Assembly: GCF_044324785.1 (NCBI RefSeq)
Contig: NZ_CP172127.1
Source: Escherichia coli
GTDB lineage: Bacteria > Pseudomonadota > Gammaproteobacteria > Enterobacterales > Enterobacteriaceae
Length of the DNA: 64,000 nucleotides
Direction: 5' to 3' (one strand)
Below, piece by piece: positions 15,672 through 60,439 of this stretch. The notes under the pieces are model-generated. The model was not told the origin of the DNA. It was given only the letters and a program-made list of their open reading frames with translations, and ran no database searches. How positions within the stretch are numbered: the first letter of the stretch is position 1; each line of letters opens with the position of its first letter. The translations under genes were made by a program, and so were the position numbers.

Positions 15672-15935
15672 GAATCAGGAAAAATCATGTCTGAACCTCT
15701 AACCGCTGGCGTTGCTGCTGGCTCGGCGGGGGTGACGTTTGCTGCGTTATTTCCTGAGGCAACACCTGCAGTGATGATCTGTGCGCTGGCAGGCGCAGCT
15801 CTCTATGTGTTGTCGTCCGGGCAGCATCGATTCTGGAAGCAGGTTAGACTGGCCCCCTGAATCTCCAGACAACCAATATCACTTAAATAAGTGATAGTCT
15901 TAATACTAGTTTTTAGACTAGTCATTGGAGAGCAG

Positions 15936-16301
15936 ATGATTGATGTCTTAGGACCGGAGAAACGCAGACGGCGTACTACACAGGAAAAGATCGCTATTGT
16001 TCAGCAGAGTTTTGAACCGGGAATGACGGTCTCCCTTGTTGCCCGGCAACACGGTGTGGCAGCCAGCCAGTTATTTCTCTGGCGCAAGCAATACCAGGAG
16101 GGAAGTCTTACTGCTGTGGCCGCAGGAGAGCAGGTCGTTCCTGCCTCTGAACTTGCTGCTGCCATGAAGCAGATTAAAGAACTCCAGCGCCTGCTCGGCA
16201 AAAAAACGATGGAAAATGAACTCCTTAAAGAAGCCGTTGAATACGGGCGTGCAAAAAAGTGGATAGCGCACGCGCCCTTATTGCCCGGGGATGGGGAGTA
16301 A
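15936..16301 (+). CDS. insC: IS2 transposase OrfA (InsC)
   Basis: [53 protein letters not shown]. Confidence 0.9.
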
Positions 16302-17164
16302 GCTTAGTCAGCCGTTGTCTCCGGGTGTCGCGTGCGCAGTTGCACGTAATTCTCAGACGAACCGATGACTGGAAAGATGGTCGCCGCAGCCGTCACTCAG
16401 ATGATACGGATGTGCTTCTCCGTATACACCATGTTATCGGAGAGCTGCCCACGTATGGTTATCGTCGGGTATGGGCGCTGCTTCGCAGACAGGCCGAACT
16501 TGATGGTATGCCTGCGATCAATGCCAAACGTGTTTACCGGATCATGCGCCAGAATGCGCTGTTGCTTGAGCGAAAAACCGCTGTACCGCCATCGAAACGG
16601 GCACATACTGGCAAAGTGGCCGTGAAAGAAAGCAATCAACGATGGTGCTCTGACGGGTTCGAGTTCCGCTGTGATAACGGAGAAAAACTGCGAGTCACGT
16701 TCGCGCTGGACTGCTGTGACCGTGAGGCACTGCACTGGGCAGTCACTACGGGCGGCTTCGACAGTGAAACAGTACAGGACGTAATGCTGGGAGCGGTGGA
16801 ACGCCGCTTCGGCAACGAGCTTCCGGCGTCTCCAGTAGAGTGGCTGACGGATAATGGTTCATGCTACCGGGCTAATGAAACACGGCAGTTTGCCCGGATG
16901 TTGGGGCTTGAACCGAAGAACACGGCGGTGCGGAGTCCGGAGAGTAACGGCATAGCAGAGAGCTTCGTGAAAACGATAAAGCGTGACTACATCAGTATCA
17001 TGCCTAAACCAGACGGGTTAACGGCAGCAAAGAACCTTGCAGAGGCGTTCGAGCATTATAACGAATGGCATCCGCATAGTGCACTGGGTTATCGCTCGCC
17101 ACGGGAATATCTGCGGCAGCAGGCCAGTAATGGGTTAAGTGATAACAGGTGTCTGGAAATATAG
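16259..17164 (+). CDS. insD: IS2 transposase OrfB (InsD)
   Basis: 301-aa DDE transposase overlapping insC in -1 frame. Confidence 0.9.
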
Positions 17165-17405
17165 GGGCAAATCCACAGGTTATTTTCGCACTCATTTCGT
17201 TTGTTGGCGGTGTGTATTGCGCTGAGACAGCATCAGCCATCATTACCGGTATTCTGAACGCGGTGCTGAGTCACCTGAACCCTCCCGTAACAGTAAAAGT
17301 CTCTCCCGCCATTGGTGCACTGGTTGCATCAGTAATCAGCGTTACATCACTGTTGCGGATCATGTCACAAGCTCGTTTATGGAAATCAGATAAGGGGATG
17401 AAATA

Positions 17406-18162: not shown

Positions 18163-18354
18163 ATGAAAAAGTTCTTTCTACTGGCAGCGTTGGTGCTTGC
18201 GGGTTGCTCAAACACGACGTACACGGAAGCAACGCATCCCAACGGCACGACCGTAAAGCACATTTCTATCGCACCGGGTACGAAGATCACAACCGCAAGT
18301 GGTGGCTGTATCGACTCTGCCGGGGCTGCGGCTTCATGCCCATTGGATCAATGA
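18163..18354 (+). CDS. small lipoprotein, possible spanin component
   Basis: signal peptide with lipobox LAGC; directly follows endolysin. Confidence 0.45.
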   Translation: MKKFFLLAALVLAGCSNTTYTEATHPNGTTVKHISIAPGTKITTASGGCIDSAGAAASCPLDQ

Positions 18355-18552
18355 GGGTAATTGGCATAGGCAATTTAACCGTATAAGTGCGCCTTCACCG
18401 GCTTCCTGCAAATAAGTGCATTTCGTAATTTATAAAGTTCTAAGAAGCAAGTCCATAAGCTTAACATTACAGCACAAACGATCTGTTTTTAGTTCTATGG
18501 GTGTTCTCTTTTTTCGGGAATATATTTTAGTAACCAGAATTAAATTCTAAAA

Positions 18553-18577
18553 GGCCTCGCAACTGCGGGGCTTTTTT
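18553..18577 (+). terminator. intrinsic terminator after lysis cassette
   Basis: gcctcgc-aact-gcggggc hairpin plus tttttt. Confidence 0.55.
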
Positions 18578-18730
18578 ATATCCGTATTTCGCTGCGCACC
18601 GCATGCGCATATCAACCACCGAACCAAACCCTTTGGAATGAGCCGTTGAGGATGTCAGTTAGTGCTGGCGAGCCTCGGTGGGCTGACTTCCTATGCGGCA
18701 ACGGTTCATCTCAAAGAGTAGGTACACGCT

Positions 18731-19228
18731 ATGAAATCATTAACCCTCTTCAATCAACCAATCCGCGTCGGGGATGATGGCATGATCTGCCTCACCGACA
18801 TGTGGAAAGCCAGCGGCAAAAGTGACGCTGAATCGCCGTACCACTATCTGCGAAACAAGCAGACCAAAGAGTTCCTTGTCGAGCTGGAGAAAAACCACGA
18901 ATCTGTGGTTTTCACTGCCCGCGGCGTACACGGCGGAACCTATGGCGGGAAGTTTGTTGCTTACGATTATGCGGCTTGGTTAAACCCAGGGTTCAAGTAT
19001 GCAGCCTATAAAGTACTCGATGACTACTTCACCGGAGAGCTTCGGCATCGTAATAGCTTAAGTGCGCAGCTCAACATGAAGTGTTATGAGTTTGACCAGA
19101 AGAAAGACATGGCGAGCTTCTGTGGGCAAGGACTCGCGGCATGGCGTTATACAAAGCCTGTGCTGATCGCTGAGATGAACACCTTGGCAAACCAACTGCA
19201 GATTACGCTCCCTGGACTTCCTGGATGA
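18731..19228 (+). CDS. KilA-N domain protein
   Basis: N-terminal FNQPIRVGDDGMICLTDMWKASGKSDAESPYHYLRNKQTKEFL. Confidence 0.55.
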   Translation: MKSLTLFNQPIRVGDDGMICLTDMWKASGKSDAESPYHYLRNKQTKEFLVELEKNHESVVFTARGVHGGTYGGKFVAYDYAAWLNPGFKYAAYKVLDDYFTGELRHRNSLSAQLNMKCYEFDQKKDMASFCGQGLAAWRYTKPVLIAEMNTLANQLQITLPGLPG

Positions 19229-19467
19229 GTAATCGCGTCATCGAATGCGCCTCCAGAGCGGGGCGTGACTTCTCAGAGTTCATGAAAGGCGAGAAGGGTA
19301 TGGAGGACGCGCTGTCCTCGGTGAATCAGTTTGGCGAGCAGATTCGACTCAACGGCTGCGTCAATCATCACTTTGTCAGTTACATGATGCGTAACGCGAT
19401 CATGCAGGCATTCATGGACATGGCAAGCACTGAGAAAAAAGAAGAGCGCCGACGTAAACGAGCGTAA
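19225..19467 (+). CDS. hypothetical protein (80 aa)
   Basis: start overlaps stop of KilA-N gene. Confidence 0.4.
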   Translation: MSNRVIECASRAGRDFSEFMKGEKGMEDALSSVNQFGEQIRLNGCVNHHFVSYMMRNAIMQAFMDMASTEKKEERRRKRA

Positions 19468-19617
19468 GCAAAAGCTGAGTAGTCATTCCAAAGCTCATCC
19501 CCGGGCGGGCTTGATAATGGATAGTCATCACAGATTTAAAATGTGGCAATGAAGTCTCTTTAATAAGCCAATTCTTAGCATTATTCTGACCTCTCCAATT
19601 GAAAAGGAGGTTGAGTA

Positions 19618-19809
19618 ATGTCAGATGAAATCCGTCGCTGTAAAATCGTCAGTATGTATGAACAACCCGAGGGAACGTTCATTAAGTTCGCTCCAGTGAA
19701 ATTCTATGACGAAGGCAACAACCCTCATGTCGGCGAGCAAGCAATCGTAGAGATGGATAACGGCAAAGTGATTACCGTAAACCCGGGTGAGATTCACTTT
19801 ATTAAATAG
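19618..19809 (+). CDS. hypothetical protein (63 aa)
   Basis: AAGGAGG RBS; followed by terminator. Confidence 0.45.
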   Translation: MSDEIRRCKIVSMYEQPEGTFIKFAPVKFYDEGNNPHVGEQAIVEMDNGKVITVNPGEIHFIK

Positions 19810-19830
19810 TGACAAAACTGATTGTGATGA

Positions 19831-19853
19831 AACCCACTGCGGTGGGTTTTTTA
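19831..19853 (+). terminator. intrinsic terminator
   Basis: aacccactgcggtgggtt hairpin plus tttttatt. Confidence 0.7.
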
Positions 19854-19883
19854 TTGCCATCACCATGGGCAGACCCATCGTAA

Positions 19884-19913
19884 TGGCAAAAGCAGGGCGA
19901 GGTTATCGCCCTG
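19884..19913 (-). terminator. intrinsic terminator for minus-strand operon 19918..20420
   Basis: cagggcga..tcgccctg hairpin followed on minus strand by cttttg. Confidence 0.5.
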
Positions 19914-19917
19914 TGTC

Positions 19918-20187
19918 TTAACCGCGTGCCTCACGACCCTCCTCGTCCTCAGGTACACGATATCGCCAGTATTTGTCCGGCCTAACCCAAACAACATCCC
20001 CGCCGCTATCAACTCTGAACTTATTTATGACTTTTGTTGAAAGTGCTTGGTTGCCGTCTGCATTTTCCTTCAAATGTTGCTCATTACCAACTTTGACCAA
20101 ATAATCAACGACGTCCTGCTGGTATAAGCATCCATCTTTTTGCAGTGCAGATAACATCCAATTTGATACATCTGCAACATCTAACAC
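19918..20187 (-). CDS. hypothetical protein (89 aa)
   Basis: second gene of minus-strand pair. Confidence 0.4.
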   Translation of the reverse strand: MLDVADVSNWMLSALQKDGCLYQQDVVDYLVKVGNEQHLKENADGNQALSTKVINKFRVDSGGDVVWVRPDKYWRYRVPEDEEGREARG

Positions 20188-20201
20188 AGTGGTTGATTGG
20201 G

Positions 20202-20420
20202 TTATGGCTTTGGGATGAATTTATCTAACGACTCTTCTGGGAAATTACCACTGTCTAATTTCCTTCCTGCAAACCATTGGCAACGGTAGTTACCATTGAA
20301 GGTATCCGATAAGGTAGTAAGTGGTTTTTCAACAGTCATTGCTGGGCCACCTGATTTCAATACGACTAGCTCCCCTTTATTAAATTTTGCAACTGGAGTT
20401 TGTGAAGGTGCTTTAGCCAT
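20202..20420 (-). CDS. DUF2158-family small protein (YodC-like paralog)
   Basis: KGELVVLKSGGPAMTVEK ... YRCQWFAGRKL ... FPEESL parallels host YodC (57562..57744). Confidence 0.55.
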   Translation of the reverse strand: MAKAPSQTPVAKFNKGELVVLKSGGPAMTVEKPLTTLSDTFNGNYRCQWFAGRKLDSGNFPEESLDKFIPKP

Positions 20421-20757
20421 TTTATGTCCTTAAAAGTTAGTGATATGACAATGATTAGATGGCGACAATAGGTATAAATTTCAATAATAACAACTTGACT
20501 TAGCTCACAAAATTTAAAGGAAATCTTATGGCAAAACCGGACTGGGGAGCACTGCAACACCAGTTCCTCGCCGTCCATGCCAAAACGGGTATATCACCGA
20601 AAGAATGGTGTGACGCGTAGGGACTGAGCTTCGCAACAGCCGCCGACGTATAAAAAACAATTGCGCAATGTGCCAAAGAGCTGGTGCCTGATGTAAGAGA
20701 CGTTTTACTTAAACGAGAGGCCGCCTTTTTGTTTTAAGACGGCACACCTTCAACAGG

Positions 20758-21003
20758 TTAAGGTAACCGATTTGACCATTTAGTTGCGCGCCAGTTGTTC
20801 TGAATCATAATCTCCTCGAGTATCTCATCTGAAGGCTCTGCTTCGCCGCTTAACCATTCTCTTAAAGTTGGACAATGCAGGTAAGAGGAGTTCGCACGAT
20901 AAAAAGATACGATGGTTTCCTCTGATAACTTCTCAGGAAATTTTTTGGGGTCAGCTTCTTTTAATATTACGCTCATTAAGGCTTCGATTTTTTCTTTGTT
21001 CAT
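20758..21003 (-). CDS. hypothetical protein (81 aa)
   Basis: ORF only. Confidence 0.35.
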   Translation of the reverse strand: MNKEKIEALMSVILKEADPKKFPEKLSEETIVSFYRANSSYLHCPTLREWLSGEAEPSDEILEEIMIQNNWRATKWSNRLP

Positions 21004-21374
21004 TTTTTTGTGTGCTCATGGTTGTTGCTTTTCTGTAAGAATATCAATAATTTCAAGATATATACACATAGGGAAAACTTTGTTCGGTAGTCTATCGATA
21101 CAGCGCAAAAGGATGGCTCGCTGCCAAAGTGAAAGCTTACGCTGATAATGAGATACACAAAGCTGATGTATGCAAACAAGTACGCCGCGAGGCTACAGTC
21201 GAGTTTGATGAACCTGATGCGAGCCCCCGATTCCTGTCCTGAAAGGGATATAGCCCCCCTGGTCGCGGGTCCTTTCCGAAATTCAAAACACCGAGGGTCG
21301 GTAGACGCGCAAAAACTCACTCGTTTTTAGTATTTTTTCATTTTGGGTATTTCCGGTTCCGGTGAGGATTTTTA

Positions 21375-21941
21375 ATGGCAAGTCAGGCTGAGGTCGCAGC
21401 ACATTTACTGCTATCTGATCGTCGTCTGCGCGATCTTGCAAAACTTCCGGGAGCCCCAGTCCCCCAAGGACGTGGCGATTGGGAACTTGACGCATGGCGC
21501 CATTTTTATATTCGTTATCTCCGGAGCAATAGACGCGACACAACTAGTAATGACGAACCGGAAGCTGGGGACAATTCTCCCGAAAAAAATCGCGAGCAGT
21601 GGTTGAAAAATGAGGAACGGCAGGAGCGAATCCTGATGGCTCGCGTGAAACGCCGCATTCTTGCTAAACGCTACGCGCCAATTGAATTAATCAGCGTATC
21701 TGTATCTCGCGTCGCAGTTGAATTACGTACCCGTGTCGAATCGTGGCCACCACGGTTAAAAAAGGTGTGGCCGGAAATGCCGCAGGAGGCGAGCAGTGTA
21801 TTACGAGAGGAGCTGGCAATAGCCCTGAATGAACTGGCAGACATACGAATCGACTTCAGCGATTACGATGTCAGCGATATCGAACGCGATCTCGACAGGG
21901 TTGAATCCCTTGCGCGTGACGATACCGATGACGGGGGTTGA
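21375..21941 (+). CDS. terminase small subunit
   Basis: position immediately upstream of and overlapping gpA-like large terminase; acidic C-terminus. Confidence 0.55.
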   Translation: MASQAEVAAHLLLSDRRLRDLAKLPGAPVPQGRGDWELDAWRHFYIRYLRSNRRDTTSNDEPEAGDNSPEKNREQWLKNEERQERILMARVKRRILAKRYAPIELISVSVSRVAVELRTRVESWPPRLKKVWPEMPQEASSVLREELAIALNELADIRIDFSDYDVSDIERDLDRVESLARDDTDDGG

Positions 21942-52852: not shown

Positions 52853-53548
52853 ATGGACGTACAACACTGGCAGGCACAGTTCGAAAACTGGTTGAAAAAC
52901 CATCATCAGCACCAGGACGCGGCCCATGACGTATGTCATTTTCGCCGTGTCTGGGCTACGGCACAGAAGCTGGCGGCAGATGACGATGTCGATATGCTGG
53001 TGATTTTAACCGCCTGTTATTTTCACGATATTGTGATCCTGGCGAAAAATCATCCACAACGGCAGCGTTCTTCAATCCTGGCGGCAGAAGAAACGCGTCG
53101 CCTGCTCCGTGAAGAGTTCGTGCAATTTCCGGCGGAGAAAATTGAGGCCGTTTGTCATGCCATTGCCGCGCACAGTTTCAGCGCGCAAATCGCCCCCTTA
53201 ACAACGGAAGCTAAAATCGTCCAGGATGCGGATCGGCTGGAAGCCCTGGGGGCGATTGGCCTGGCGCGCGTGTTTGCCGTTTCAGGGGCATTGGGCGTGG
53301 CGCTGTTTGATGGCGAAGATCCGTTCGCACAGCATCGCCCGCTGGATGATAAACGCTACGCGCTGGATCATTTCCAGACTAAGTTGCTGAAGCTACCGCA
53401 AACCATGCAAACCGCAAGAGGCAAGCAGCTGGCGCAGCACAACGCGCAATTTTTAGTCGAGTTTATGGCGAAGCTCAGTGCCGAACTGGCGGGGGAGAAT
53501 GAAGGTGTCGATCACAAGGTGATAGATACGTTTTCACCCGTGGGCTGA
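52853..53548 (+). CDS. yedJ: HD-domain phosphohydrolase YedJ
   Basis: HD motif; ATG with GGAG RBS. Confidence 0.75.
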
Positions 53549-53614
53549 GCGCGTGGCCCTAAATGGCTGTAATTATGTTAACCTGTCGGCCATCTCAGAT
53601 GGCCGGTTAAATCT

Positions 53615-55033
53615 ATGCAGGAAAATATATCAGTAACCGATTCATACAGCACCGGGAATGCCGCACAGGCAATGCTGGAGAAACTGCTGCAAATTTATGA
53701 TGTTAAAACGCTGGTGGCGCAGCTTAATGGTGTGGGTGAGAATCACTGGAGCGCGGCAATTTTAAAACGTGCGCTGGCGAATGACTCGGCATGGCACCGT
53801 TTAAGTGAGAAAGAGTTCGCCCATCTGCAAACGTTGTTACCCAAACCACCGGCACATCATCCGCATTATGCGTTTCGCTTTATCGATCTATTTGCCGGAA
53901 TTGGCGGCATCCGTCGCGGTTTTGAATCGATTGGCGGACAGTGCGTCTTTACCAGCGAATGGAACAAACATGCGGTTCGCACTTATAAAGCCAACCATTA
54001 TTGCGATCCGGCGACGCATCATTTTAATGAAGATATCCGCGACATCACCCTCAGCCATAAAGACGGCGTGAGTGATGAGTCGGCGGCAGAACATATTCGT
54101 CAACACATTCCTGAACACGATGTATTACTGGCCGGTTTTCCTTGTCAGCCATTTTCGCTGGCTGGCGTATCGAAAAAGAACTCGCTCGGGCGGGCGCACG
54201 GTTTTGCCTGCGATACCCAGGGCACGCTGTTCTTTGATGTGGTGCGCATTATCGACGCGCGTCGTCCGGCGATGTTTGTGCTCGAAAACGTCAAAAACCT
54301 GAAAAGTCACGATAAAGGAAAAACGTTCCGCATCATCATGCAGACGCTGGACGAACTGGGCTATGACGTGGCTGATGCAGAAGATAACGGGCCAGACGAT
54401 CCGAAAATCATCGACGGCAAACATTTTCTGCCGCAGCACCGTGAACGCATCGTGCTGGTGGGTTTTCGTCGCGATCTGAATCTGAAAGCCGATTTTACCC
54501 TGCGTGATATCAGCGAATGTTTTCCTGCGCAGCGAGTGACGCTGGCCCAGCTGCTGGACCCGATGGTCGAGGCGAAATATATCCTGACGCCGGTGCTGTG
54601 GAAGTACCTCTATCGATATGCGAAAAAACATCAGGCGCGCGGTAACGGCTTCGGTTATGGAATGGTTTATCCGAACAATCCGCAAAGCGTCACGCGTACG
54701 TTGTCTGCGCGTTATTACAAAGATGGCGCAGAAATTTTAATCGATCGCGGCTGGGATATGGCAACGGGTGAGAAAGACTTTGACGATCCGCTGAATCAGC
54801 AACATCGCCCACGTCGGTTAACGCCTCGGGAATGCGCGCGTTTAATGGGGTTTGAAGCGCCGGGAGAAGCGAAATTCCGCATTCCGGTTTCGGACACTCA
54901 GGCCTATCGCCAGTTCGGTAACTCGGTGGTCGTACCGGTCTTTGCCGCGGTGGCAAAACTGCTTGAGCCAAAAATCAAACAGGCGGTGGCGTTGCGTCAG
55001 CAAGAGGCACAACATGGCCGACGTTCACGATAA
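53615..55033 (+). CDS. dcm: DNA-cytosine methyltransferase Dcm
   Basis: 472 aa; FAGIGG and PCQ motifs. Confidence 0.9.
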
Positions 55034-55484
55034 GGCCACACGCAGCAAAAATATGCGCGCGATTGCCACGCGTGATACGGCGATTGAGAAGCGCCTCGCC
55101 AGTTTGTTAACCGGGCAGGGACTGGCGTTTCGCGTTCAGGACGCGGATCTCCCCGGACGCCCGGATTTTGTCGTTGATGAATATCGCTGCGTGATATTTA
55201 CCCACGGCTGCTTCTGGCACCATCATCACTGCTATCTGTTTAAAGTGCCTGCGACTCGAACCGGGTTCTGGCTGGAGAAGATAGGTAAAAATGTTGAGCG
55301 CGATCGCCGCGATATCAGTCGCTTGCAGGAACTCGGCTGGCGCGTATTGATTGTCTGGGAGTGTGCGTTACGTGGGCGCGAGAAGCTGACGGATGAAGCG
55401 CTTAGCGAGCGTCTGGAAGAGTGGATCTGCGGCGAAGGAGCCAGCGCGCAGATCGACACGCAGGGGATTCATTTACTCGCTTGA
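55014..55484 (+). CDS. vsr: very-short-patch repair endonuclease Vsr
   Basis: [28 protein letters not shown]; starts inside the 3' end of dcm in another frame. Confidence 0.9.
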
Positions 55485-56393
55485 TGCGTCCTGAATAACG
55501 GGCGCAACTACGGGTTTGGCCGGGAAGAGATATTTTCCCAACGTGACCAGTACCACCGCGAAGACAATCACGCCGAGCGCCAGCCATTCAATCTTCGACA
55601 GCGTCTCTCCGCCCAGTCCCGTACCCAGCAAGACCGCGACCACAGGGTTAACGTAGGCGTAGCTGGTGGCGAGAGCCGGACTGACGTTGCGGATTAAATA
55701 CATATAAGCGTTAATGGCGATAATCGAACCAAACAGCGCCAGATAGCCGACCGCAAGGAAGCCTGAAAGGGAAGGGAGCGCCGTCAGTTTTTCACCCGCA
55801 ATCATCGACGCGATCATTAACACCACGCCTGCCGCAAGCATCTCAATCGCACCCGCCATCATCCCTACAGGTAAGGTAATGCGCGAGCCATAAACTGAGC
55901 CAAACGCCCAGCTAATCGAGCCGATTAAAATCAGAATCGCGCCCCACGGATTGCCGCTTAAATTTCCACCGCTATTGAGCATGATGATTCCGGCAAGTCC
56001 AATGGCGATACCCACCCATTCCAGTTTGCGCGTTTTAATGCCAAACAGGCGGCTGAAGCACAGGGTAAAGAGGGGCACGGTTGCAACCACTACGGCGGCG
56101 ATGCCGGAAGGAACATTTTGATGTTCGGCAACCGTTACCATGCCATTACCGACAGCCAGCAATAACAGGCCAATCAGCGCGGCATTGAGCAGCGGACGTA
56201 GCGGGGGGAGCTTGTGTCCGCGCAGTAGCAAAAATGCCAGCAATAAAATACCGGCTGCCAGGAATCGCACGCCCGCCATCATTAACGGCGGCCAGCTTTC
56301 CACGCCAATCCGAATGACAAAATAGGTTGAGCCCCAAATGATATACAACGCAAACAGCGCGCCAAAAAGCGGTAACAACTGGCGGAAACGCAT
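55473..56393 (-). CDS. yedA: EamA-family (DMT) transporter YedA
   Basis: 306-aa 10-TM protein. Confidence 0.8.
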   Translation of the reverse strand: MRFRQLLPLFGALFALYIIWGSTYFVIRIGVESWPPLMMAGVRFLAAGILLLAFLLLRGHKLPPLRPLLNAALIGLLLLAVGNGMVTVAEHQNVPSGIAAVVVATVPLFTLCFSRLFGIKTRKLEWVGIAIGLAGIIMLNSGGNLSGNPWGAILILIGSISWAFGSVYGSRITLPVGMMAGAIEMLAAGVVLMIASMIAGEKLTALPSLSGFLAVGYLALFGSIIAINAYMYLIRNVSPALATSYAYVNPVVAVLLGTGLGGETLSKIEWLALGVIVFAVVLVTLGKYLFPAKPVVAPVIQDASSE

Positions 56394-56565
56394 AATCCCT
56401 CACGGTGGAAATAAAAAGGTGGTTCATAGTAAACGTGAAAATCATTCTGCTGGCGAGAGATATAATTGCACTTGATTGTTAAAAAAATGTTGACCTGTGA
56501 AGCAAGTATCAGAGCTGCCGTTTTTGCTTCATACTTACACCCTTCAACAATAAAAATGAGAGGGA

Positions 56566-57483
56566 ATGCTTTTGGCCGGGAGTAGTTTACTGACGTTGCT
56601 CGATGATATCGCCACACTGCTGGACGATATTTCCGTGATGGGCAAACTGGCGGCGAAGAAAACCGCCGGTGTATTAGGGGATGACTTATCGCTCAATGCG
56701 CAACAAGTTTCAGGCGTGCGGGCCAACCGGGAACTTCCCGTGGTCTGGGGCGTGGCGAAAGGATCGCTGATCAATAAAGTGATTCTGGTGCCGCTGGCGC
56801 TGATCATCAGTGCGTTTATCCCGTGGGCGATTACGCCACTGTTGATGATTGGCGGCGCGTTTCTCTGCTTTGAAGGGGTAGAGAAAGTGCTGCATATGCT
56901 GGAGGCGCGTAAACATAAAGAAGATCCGGCGCAGAGTCAGCAGCGTCTGGAGAAGCTGGCGGCGCAGGATCCGCTGAAGTTTGAAAAGGACAAAATAAAA
57001 GGGGCGATTCGTACCGATTTTATATTGTCTGCGGAAATCGTCGCCATCACGCTGGGGATTGTGGCAGAAGCGCCGTTGCTTAATCAGGTGCTGGTGCTTT
57101 CAGGCATCGCGCTGGTAGTGACCGTGGGCGTCTACGGTCTGGTAGGGGTTATCGTTAAGATTGATGACCTGGGGTATTGGTTGGCGGAAAAATCCAGCGC
57201 GCTGATGCAGGCATTAGGTAAAGGGTTATTGATTATCGCGCCCTGGTTGATGAAAGCGTTATCGATTGTCGGCACGCTGGCGATGTTCCTCGTCGGCGGC
57301 GGGATTGTGGTACATGGTATTGCGCCGCTGCATCACGCCATTGAACATTTCGCCGGGCAGCAAAGTGCAGTGGTGGCGATGATATTACCGACTGTTTTAA
57401 ATCTGATTCTTGGATTTATCATCGGCGGCATCGTGGTGCTGGGAGTGAAAGCAGTAGCGAAAATGCGCGGTCAGGCACATTAA
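56566..57483 (+). CDS. yedI: inner membrane protein YedI (DUF808)
   Basis: 305 aa. Confidence 0.75.
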
Positions 57484-57561
57484 TACTCGCACTGGCTATT
57501 ATGCAAAATTCGCCATCTTCAACTAAGGTGAACAAGTTTCACTCGAAAAAAGGAGGCGAGT

Positions 57562-57744
57562 ATGAGCTTTATGGTTAGTGAGGAAGTTACGGTTAAAGAG
57601 GGCGGCCCGCGGATGATTGTCACCGGATACTCCAGCGGTATGGTTGAGTGTCGTTGGTATGACGGTTACGGGGTCAAGCGGGAAGCTTTTCATGAAACCG
57701 AGCTTGTTCCAGGGGAGGGGAGTCGTCCTGCGGAAGAAGTTTGA
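57562..57744 (+). CDS. yodC: DUF2158 small protein YodC
   Basis: 60 aa MSFMVSEEVTVKEGGPRMIVTGYSSGMVECRWYDGYGVKREAFHETELVPG. Confidence 0.8.
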   Translation: MSFMVSEEVTVKEGGPRMIVTGYSSGMVECRWYDGYGVKREAFHETELVPGEGSRPAEEV

Positions 57745-57914
57745 AAGGGTATCATTAACACCAGGCCGGATCACATCCGGCCTGGTGTGCCAATGCCTGC
57801 AATGAATGATAGTCGCGTCTTATCATGCCACCATTATAAAATTATCGCTGTTTTGCGGTACGTTATCGCCGGGTTATGCCAGAATCATAAAAAAGCAGGT
57901 TGGGAGTCGTCAGG

Positions 57915-60439
<2,525 letters not shown>

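Follow-up and report, generated by a model that had tools for sequence, protein, structure and literature searches.

The window, by which we mean the whole 64,000-nucleotide stretch of Escherichia coli DNA that was analysed, carries a prophage in which a short open reading frame (ORF) lies upstream of the packaging genes (Table 1). The ORF runs from ATG to TAG over 30 codons, with the translation MAKPDWGALQHQFLAVHAKTGISPKEWCDA*, and a Shine-Dalgarno-like AAAGGA motif is located 7 to 8 nt 5' of its ATG. It is preceded by a leader and two divergent cargo genes and followed by the left edge of a lambda-like module. Between its stop and the ATG (21375) of the 188-amino-acid (aa) ORF encoding the resident small terminase subunit (TerS), we measured 755 nt, in keeping with the figure of about 750 bp in an earlier note on this DNA. 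The plus-strand ORFs after the 188-aa ORF encode 653, 77, and 524 aa, and downstream of the resident large terminase subunit (TerL) are genes for gpW, a lambda-family portal protein (Phage_portal_2), an S49 protease, and an E-type capsid protein. GpA_ATPase and GpA_nuclease domains are found on the identical TerL gene in the related assemblies L019 to L023; the true start of the resident TerL is probably downstream of its first ATG. We take this lambda-type terminase to cut at cos rather than to package by the headful.

Table 1. Features at the short ORF and in its surroundings (positions in the window)
Feature	Coordinates	Strand	Basis or remark
Cargo gene DUF6953	19918..20187	-	Pfam; divergent, upstream of the short ORF
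Cargo gene DUF2158	20202..20420	-	Pfam; divergent, upstream of the short ORF
Leader with ribosome-binding site	20421..20527	+	105/108 identical to the leader of the intact TerS gene in L024
30-codon ORF and TAG	20528..20620	+	Equivalent to ancestral TerS codons 1-30 (helices 1 and 2 of the N-terminal module, as predicted)
TerS remnant, very probably a pseudogene; about 52 codons of an ancestral 245-347-aa TerS	20528..20683	+	blastn, blastx, DNA alignments
Amber codon (TAG) where intact homologues have Gln31 (CAG)	20618..20620	+	Alignment to intact homologues and other stub lineages
Site of 1-nt deletion, frame shifted at about codon 39	20640..20641	+	Relatives CAGCTCGCC, window CAGC-CGCC
20-nt joint, from the end of TerS homology to the start of the lambda-like module	20684..20703		Alignments
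Left edge of the lambda-like module: terminator-like hairpin and 81-aa ORF	20704..21003	-	Alignment, PHROG
Terminator-like hairpin	20743..20720	-	Follows the 81-aa ORF; only sensible site of the promoter/terminator scan
81-aa ORF, PHROG 5191	20758..21003	-	PHROG profile match
Resident TerS, 188 aa, PHROG 57	21375..21941	+	E value of 1.7e-38, residues 1-186
Resident TerL, lambda GpA type, 653 aa	21829..23790	+	PHROG 15, E value of 2e-244

The packaging region differs in detail among relatives. For the E. coli prophages L004 (6049..6354) and L005 (6047..6352), RefSeq gives a resident TerS of only 101 aa (WP_223718779.1), and the gene is also called at 101 aa in L025 (GCA_044537665.1). In L004 and L005, probably either the annotated start lies too far downstream or the 5' parts have been damaged. 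L021 (GCA_048597945.1) lacks about 300 bp equivalent to 20900..21199 of the window; this gap covers the 5' part of the 81-aa PHROG 5191 ORF up to just before the presumed cos region.

The earlier note proposed that the short ORF resembles the N-terminus of a different TerS. We compared the 30-aa peptide by tblastn with 50,697 phage records, comprising 2.3 Gb of phage DNA. It matched 255 records, all but one of which (254/255) cover at least 80% of the peptide, and each alignment starts from residue 1 of the gene matched. The best match is to Klebsiella phage RothC (90% identity; E value of 2e-12). A gene annotated as "terminase small subunit" in Providencia phage PSTCR3 shares 79% identity (E value of 2e-10), Yersinia and Klebsiella phages 70 to 73%, and more than 100 Stx-converting phages about 50%. 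When the amber codon and a frameshift were repaired from close relatives, the restored 47-aa peptide matched the "terminase small subunit" profiles PHROG 51 (E value of 5.7e-16) and PHROG 370 (E value of 1.5e-15), in both cases over profile positions 1 to 45, as well as PHROGs 32222, 30708, and 1711; PHROG 57, the lambda Nu1-type family, was not among its matches to PHROG profiles. The restored sequence contains an N-terminal module of about 45 residues (MAKPDWG..L...FL..HA..G.SPK.WC...GL.Y..A.RYIK). The proposed resemblance is borne out by the tblastn E values of 2e-12 to 2e-10 and by PHROGs 51 and 370. A translated search of the ORF and its downstream frames matched the first 47 to 52 residues of intact TerS proteins, and similarity to small terminases is clear from tblastn, blastx, and the PHROG profiles alike.

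The homology is longer than the 30-codon ORF and spans about 156 nt, hereafter the stub. In blastn searches against phages, 20518/20528..20683 is 74 to 75% identical to Klebsiella phage TerS genes (E values of 1e-17 to 9e-20). The blastx alignment passes through the TAG, which lies opposite Gln31 of every intact protein; the codon is CAG in every intact homologue, as it is in stubs of the other lineages. The frame of the stub is interrupted both by the TAG at codon 31 and by a 1-nt deletion at 20640/20641, after which it reads ...RRRIKNNCA, aligned to ...RRYIKKPTA. Homology to TerS stops at about 20672-20683, that is, at about codon 48-52, and the frames downstream of 20683 gave no match to TerS. 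The description of the ORF as truncated after 30 codons therefore fits the reading frame, which has its TAG at codon 31, but not the gene fragment, whose homology continues through the TAG and the frameshift to about 20683. The 30-codon end is a secondary CAG>TAG change, and the original truncation lies at about codon 52. The stub lacks the canonical TerS core, the SF6/SPP1 G1P-like DNA-binding and oligomerisation domain (Pfam PF03592).

An AlphaFold model of the module (pLDDT of 73.5) places helices at residues 6-20, 24-31, and 35-43, the third of which is removed by the amber codon. Foldseek of this model against the PDB returned nothing significant (best E value of 1.0), with a list made up mostly of helix-turn-helix (HTH) domains, which is no more than a hint. 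A complete three-helix fold in one conserved frame was not found: helix 3 is lost, and the frame is broken in all lineages. An Rfam scan of 20100..21500 at E values up to 1 gave no match, and the promoter/terminator scan gave no signal above chance inside the stub. NCBIfam had no match for the stub, the resident TerS, or the 81-aa ORF; on the N-terminus of an intact TerS, it gave a sub-threshold IS66 TnpA-like match.

Intact homologues of the stub belong to a packaging system different from the resident one. They are 245 to 347 aa long, those of 323 to 347 aa carry the Pfam Terminase_2 core, and the core lies at residues ~75-270. The 332-aa Terminase_2 protein of L024 (GCA_037447825.1) matches SF6 G1P (PDB 3zqp) over residues 75-196 with an E value of 6e-9. 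Where the downstream genes are annotated, the large terminase that follows is of the Terminase_6N/6C type in L024 and "terminase large subunit" or PBSX family in others; in L024, a DUF4055 portal and then a Mu-F-like protein come after the Terminase_6 TerL. Residues 1-43 of these MAKPDWG-type proteins (PHROG 51/370) align to the stub at 57 to 90% identity. Examples are WP_174785161.1 and WP_148977527.1 from E. coli prophages, XDI99161.1 from Klebsiella phage RothC, QBP08130.1 from Klebsiella phage ST405-OXA48phi1.3, and QPB12015.1 from Providencia phage PSTCR3; the "DNA packaging protein" of Stx phages (Ss-VASD, AKO62154.1) is a more distant relative. The stub and the intact genes occupy the same place, where the late structural region begins downstream of the lysis and cargo genes. 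Yet the stub retains about 52 of 245 to 347 codons in a broken frame, without the core and without a Terminase_6 partner. The next genes are instead the PHROG 5191 ORF on the minus strand, the PHROG 57 TerS, and the GpA TerL. The packaging role once performed by the ancestor of the stub is now performed by the resident lambda-type Nu1/GpA terminase, whose small subunit family (PHROG 57) is unrelated to that of the stub (PHROG 51/370).

We compared the architecture of intact TerS homologues in L001, L002, L006, L007, L009, L010, and L017. No fewer than three TerS architectures share the MAKPDW N-terminal module of ~43 residues; they diverge immediately beyond residue 43-50 and are unrelated or rearranged after residue ~50. 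The three are the 246-aa RothC type, which has no Pfam match; the 323- to 347-aa Terminase_2 type, which has a Cys-rich insert; and the PSTCR3 type. Between RothC and E. coli 129130, the TerS proteins have identical ends but a different middle part. These alignments point to domain-level mosaicism within functional small terminases. Since divergence among the intact genes sets in where the stub ends, the N-terminal module behaves as an exchangeable unit.

On the right-hand side of the stub, one parental sequence gives way to another. From 20704 onward, the window is 94% identical to the lambda-like module, which is present in phage vB_EcoM-705R4. The module occurs without the stub in about 470 of 5,426 complete E. 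coli genomes, with the match again starting at 20704. The match between the window and stub-free prophages such as vB_EcoM-705R4 breaks off at 18340 and resumes at 20704; relative to the 705R4-type backbone, the window thus carries an island at 18341..20703, and this island is itself mosaic. In 705R4-type prophages, the stop of a small ORF that follows the endolysin gene lies 6 nt from the point corresponding to 20704. Homology to TerS ends at 20683 and the 705R4-type module starts at 20704, as at a mosaic junction, and the crossover point can be located to within about 10-30 nt (20672-20703).

The left-hand surroundings of the stub are matched in one NCBI assembly, L024. The segment 19827..20683, comprising DUF6953, DUF2158, the leader, and the stub, is 92% identical to L024, an alignment that likewise ends at 20683. 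There, DUF6953, DUF2158, and the matching leader precede the intact 332-aa TerS gene, which is followed by the Terminase_6 TerL gene. The arrangement in L024 is of the donor type.

Other parts of the prophage were also characterised. Within the island, a KilA-N/ORF11CD3 gene (18731..19228) and a PHROG 875 gene (19225..19467) form the block 18569..19520. Counterparts with 82 to 89% identity occur in about 940 E. coli genomes, in Salmonella phages, and in HK620 (hkbK/hkbL) and many Stx phages, the identity to the HK620 and Stx phage block being 87 to 89%. The block is usually found between the lysis genes and the terminase and behaves as a widely travelling cargo cassette; in Shigella phage Ss-VASD, it lies between Rz and the TerS-like "DNA packaging protein" gene. 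Directly after the endolysin gene, a 63-aa ORF (18163..18354) with a lipoprotein-type signal (MKKFFLLAALVLAGC...) may encode a spanin-like or other lipoprotein component; its counterpart in 705R4-type prophages is the small ORF that stops 6 nt short of the packaging module. A 1,329-bp IS3-family element (15847..17175) separates the Q gene from the lysis genes; its orfA (15891..16301) encodes HTH_Tnp_1 and its orfB (16259..17164) an rve domain, and the ends of the element look like those of IS2. The element interrupts a putative holin gene (Phage_holin_8 in relatives), and lysis by the prophage may therefore be impaired. It is absent from L019, which is otherwise 100% identical on both sides. 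The host flank at 53000..58000 (dcm, vsr, yedA, yedI, and yedJ) is at most 98.8% identical to any of the 5,426 complete E. coli genomes, and the exact arrangement of the prophage is absent from these genomes and present in several NCBI draft/GenBank assemblies. The DNA may come from a lineage outside these RefSeq complete genomes, possibly Shigella or a sparsely sampled E. coli clade.

The same stub, with an identical right-hand joint, is found in about 20 complete E. coli genomes, among them E24377A, SE11, TUM13936, and CFSAN061769, and in six IMG/VR contigs. Because the joint is identical in all copies, the truncation was a single event. The lesions that followed differ. The TAG is common to the lineage of the window (L019 to L023 and L025), and the 1-nt deletion at 20640/20641 occurs only in the window and in the 100%-identical L019. 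In the L020-type copies, the amber codon is the sole interruption of a 54-codon frame. Type A stubs (E24377A, CFSAN061769, and three IMG/VR contigs) have a +1 insertion after codon 6 that leads to a TGA at codon 8 (M-A-N-R-D-W-A-stop), and in type B stubs (TUM13936 and three IMG/VR contigs) the ATG does not lie in the TerS frame, codon 31 is still CAG, and no deletion is present. Over the 30 codons, the window differs from the L020-type copies by two non-synonymous substitutions (D5N and V16D) and zero synonymous ones, and D5N hits the invariant Asp5. Independent inactivating lesions have thus arisen in different lineages, as under relaxed selection, and the pattern of lesions and substitutions is that expected of a pseudogene. 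Programmed read-through or frameshifting was considered and rejected, since the lesions vary from lineage to lineage. The 3' half of the stub is 98 to 100% identical among lineages, and so is the flanking module; this identity therefore reflects recent common ancestry and not constraint. A scan of species-representative genomes and IMG/VR for the exact pattern of the window-type allele (56 nt, N at the amber position) gave no match, and thus no un-mutated version of it.

The 5' half has a separate history. Over 20528..20588, the window is identical at 58/61 positions to intact TerS genes of the RothC and 129130 types and at 41/61 to the type A stub, whereas beyond this segment, from 20589, the identity is with the E. 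coli stubs (98%). Furthermore, the genes upstream fall into three distinct sets, all of which meet the stub at or inside its 5' end. The simplest reading is that the 5' end and the leader may have served as the right-hand homology arm in exchanges of cargo with phages that carry an intact TerS gene. This reading agrees with the homology-driven, divergence-tolerant exchange reported for lambdoid phages, including exchange with defective prophages (De Paepe et al. 2014; PMC3945230).

Three other explanations of the stub deserve consideration. With a length of only 30 codons and several equally short ORFs overlapping it on both strands, the ORF could be a chance open frame in intergenic DNA whose likeness to TerS is fortuitous. 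We reject this explanation, the probability of which is negligible: the tblastn matches reach E values of 2e-12 in 255 phage records and always align to residue 1 of TerS, the restored peptide matches PHROG profiles, homology at the DNA level goes on past the stop, and the leader aligns collinearly with the one in front of an intact TerS gene. The stub might instead still encode a working small protein, either the 30-residue peptide or, by read-through in the L020-type copies, a 54-residue HTH mini-protein, which could act as a decoy and disturb the packaging of competing phages that rely on this TerS family. The good ribosome-binding site and conserved leader would suit such a product, as would the single amber codon that separates the L020-type copies from an open 54-codon frame and the resemblance, not significant, of the predicted three-helix module to DNA-binding domains. 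However, the inactivating lesion is different in every lineage (TAG, 1-nt deletion, +1 insertion, or no ATG in frame), a peptide that ends at the TAG is missing helix 3, both substitutions within the ORF change the amino acid, one of them at invariant Asp5, and the best structural match has an E value of 1.0. A working protein is extremely unlikely on these grounds.

Alternatively, the DNA itself could be kept for a role in cis, as a donor pac site for headful packaging by a co-resident phage or as a homology anchor for cargo swaps. In the genome of SPP1, which has a related TerS core, the 5' end of the TerS gene contains part of pac. The junction of three upstream cargo sets at or inside the 5' end of the stub, the change at 20589 from RothC-type identity to identity with the E. 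coli stubs, and the documented exchange of lambdoid phages at diverged sequences (PMC3945230) would all accord with an anchor. Against retention for such a role, a repeat search of 20400..20760 for pac-like boxes yielded only one 14-nt pair at chance level, use as a crossover site needs no selection for retention, and about 470 genomes carry the module without the stub. We consider a cis role distinctly unlikely. It is highly unlikely, too, that the stub and its conserved leader are other than inert in the sense of keeping a donor pac sequence or a TerS-derived decoy. Were pac kept, a co-resident or superinfecting phage with a PHROG 51-type terminase would start headful packaging inside a cos-type prophage and mobilise the downstream prophage and host genes; were the stub a decoy, such a phage would be inhibited by it.

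The explanation that we favour is that 20528..20683 is very probably a non-functional, decaying fragment of a TerS pseudogene at a phage mosaic junction; none of the results contradicts this reading. The retained part is the N-terminal three-helix module of about 45 residues and a few linker codons, from a TerS family that normally works with a Terminase_6-type TerL. By illegitimate recombination, codon ~52 of the foreign TerS gene would have been fused to the sequence immediately past the terminator of the minus-strand 81-aa ORF, the first gene of a lambda-like packaging and head module (Nu1-like TerS, GpA-type TerL, gpW, and lambda-type portal). The stub cannot act in packaging, because the whole TerS core and the cognate TerL are absent, and it then decayed independently in each lineage, as its lesions record. 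Later homologous exchanges at the 5' end and leader would have swapped the upstream cargo and left the mosaic structure that we observe. A late transcript probably still crosses the stub, from which a 30-residue peptide without helix 3 would be made; no function is expected of it.

The earlier note regarded the ORF as the remnant of a replaced packaging module. This interpretation is supported in essence, as a foreign TerS remnant is present at a module junction; replacement is one of two histories that fit. A pac-type module may have been replaced, or the stub may have been imported together with a block of cargo into a backbone of the lambda type. To the left and right of 18341..20703, the backbone matches stub-free prophages, and the alignments are compatible with either history; both describe the same kind of recombinant.

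Mosaicism is pervasive in phages such as HK97, HK022, and HK620, and remnants at mosaic junctions have long been described in lambdoid phages. As in those cases, the homology of one parent ends abruptly at the stub and that of another begins, the leftover fragment is decaying, and short or diverged flanking homology has been reused for further exchanges; we see no difference in kind. In a search of the literature on phage mosaicism at large, we found no description of the particular joint between codon ~52 of TerS and the PHROG 5191-cos region. The stub is an ordinary by-product of phage mosaicism and a fragment of a known TerS family, not a functional member of it. For annotation, 20528..20683 should be recorded as a TerS pseudogene fragment and not as a 30-aa gene, as it is called in one assembly, and beyond annotation the significance is small. 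The stub is a marker of one joint, between a Terminase_2/Terminase_6 packaging region and a lambda-type cos module, with which the founding event and subsequent exchanges of cargo among E. coli-type prophages can be traced. The N-terminal module of about 45 residues in PHROG 51/370 TerS proteins, for its part, behaves as an exchangeable unit within this family.
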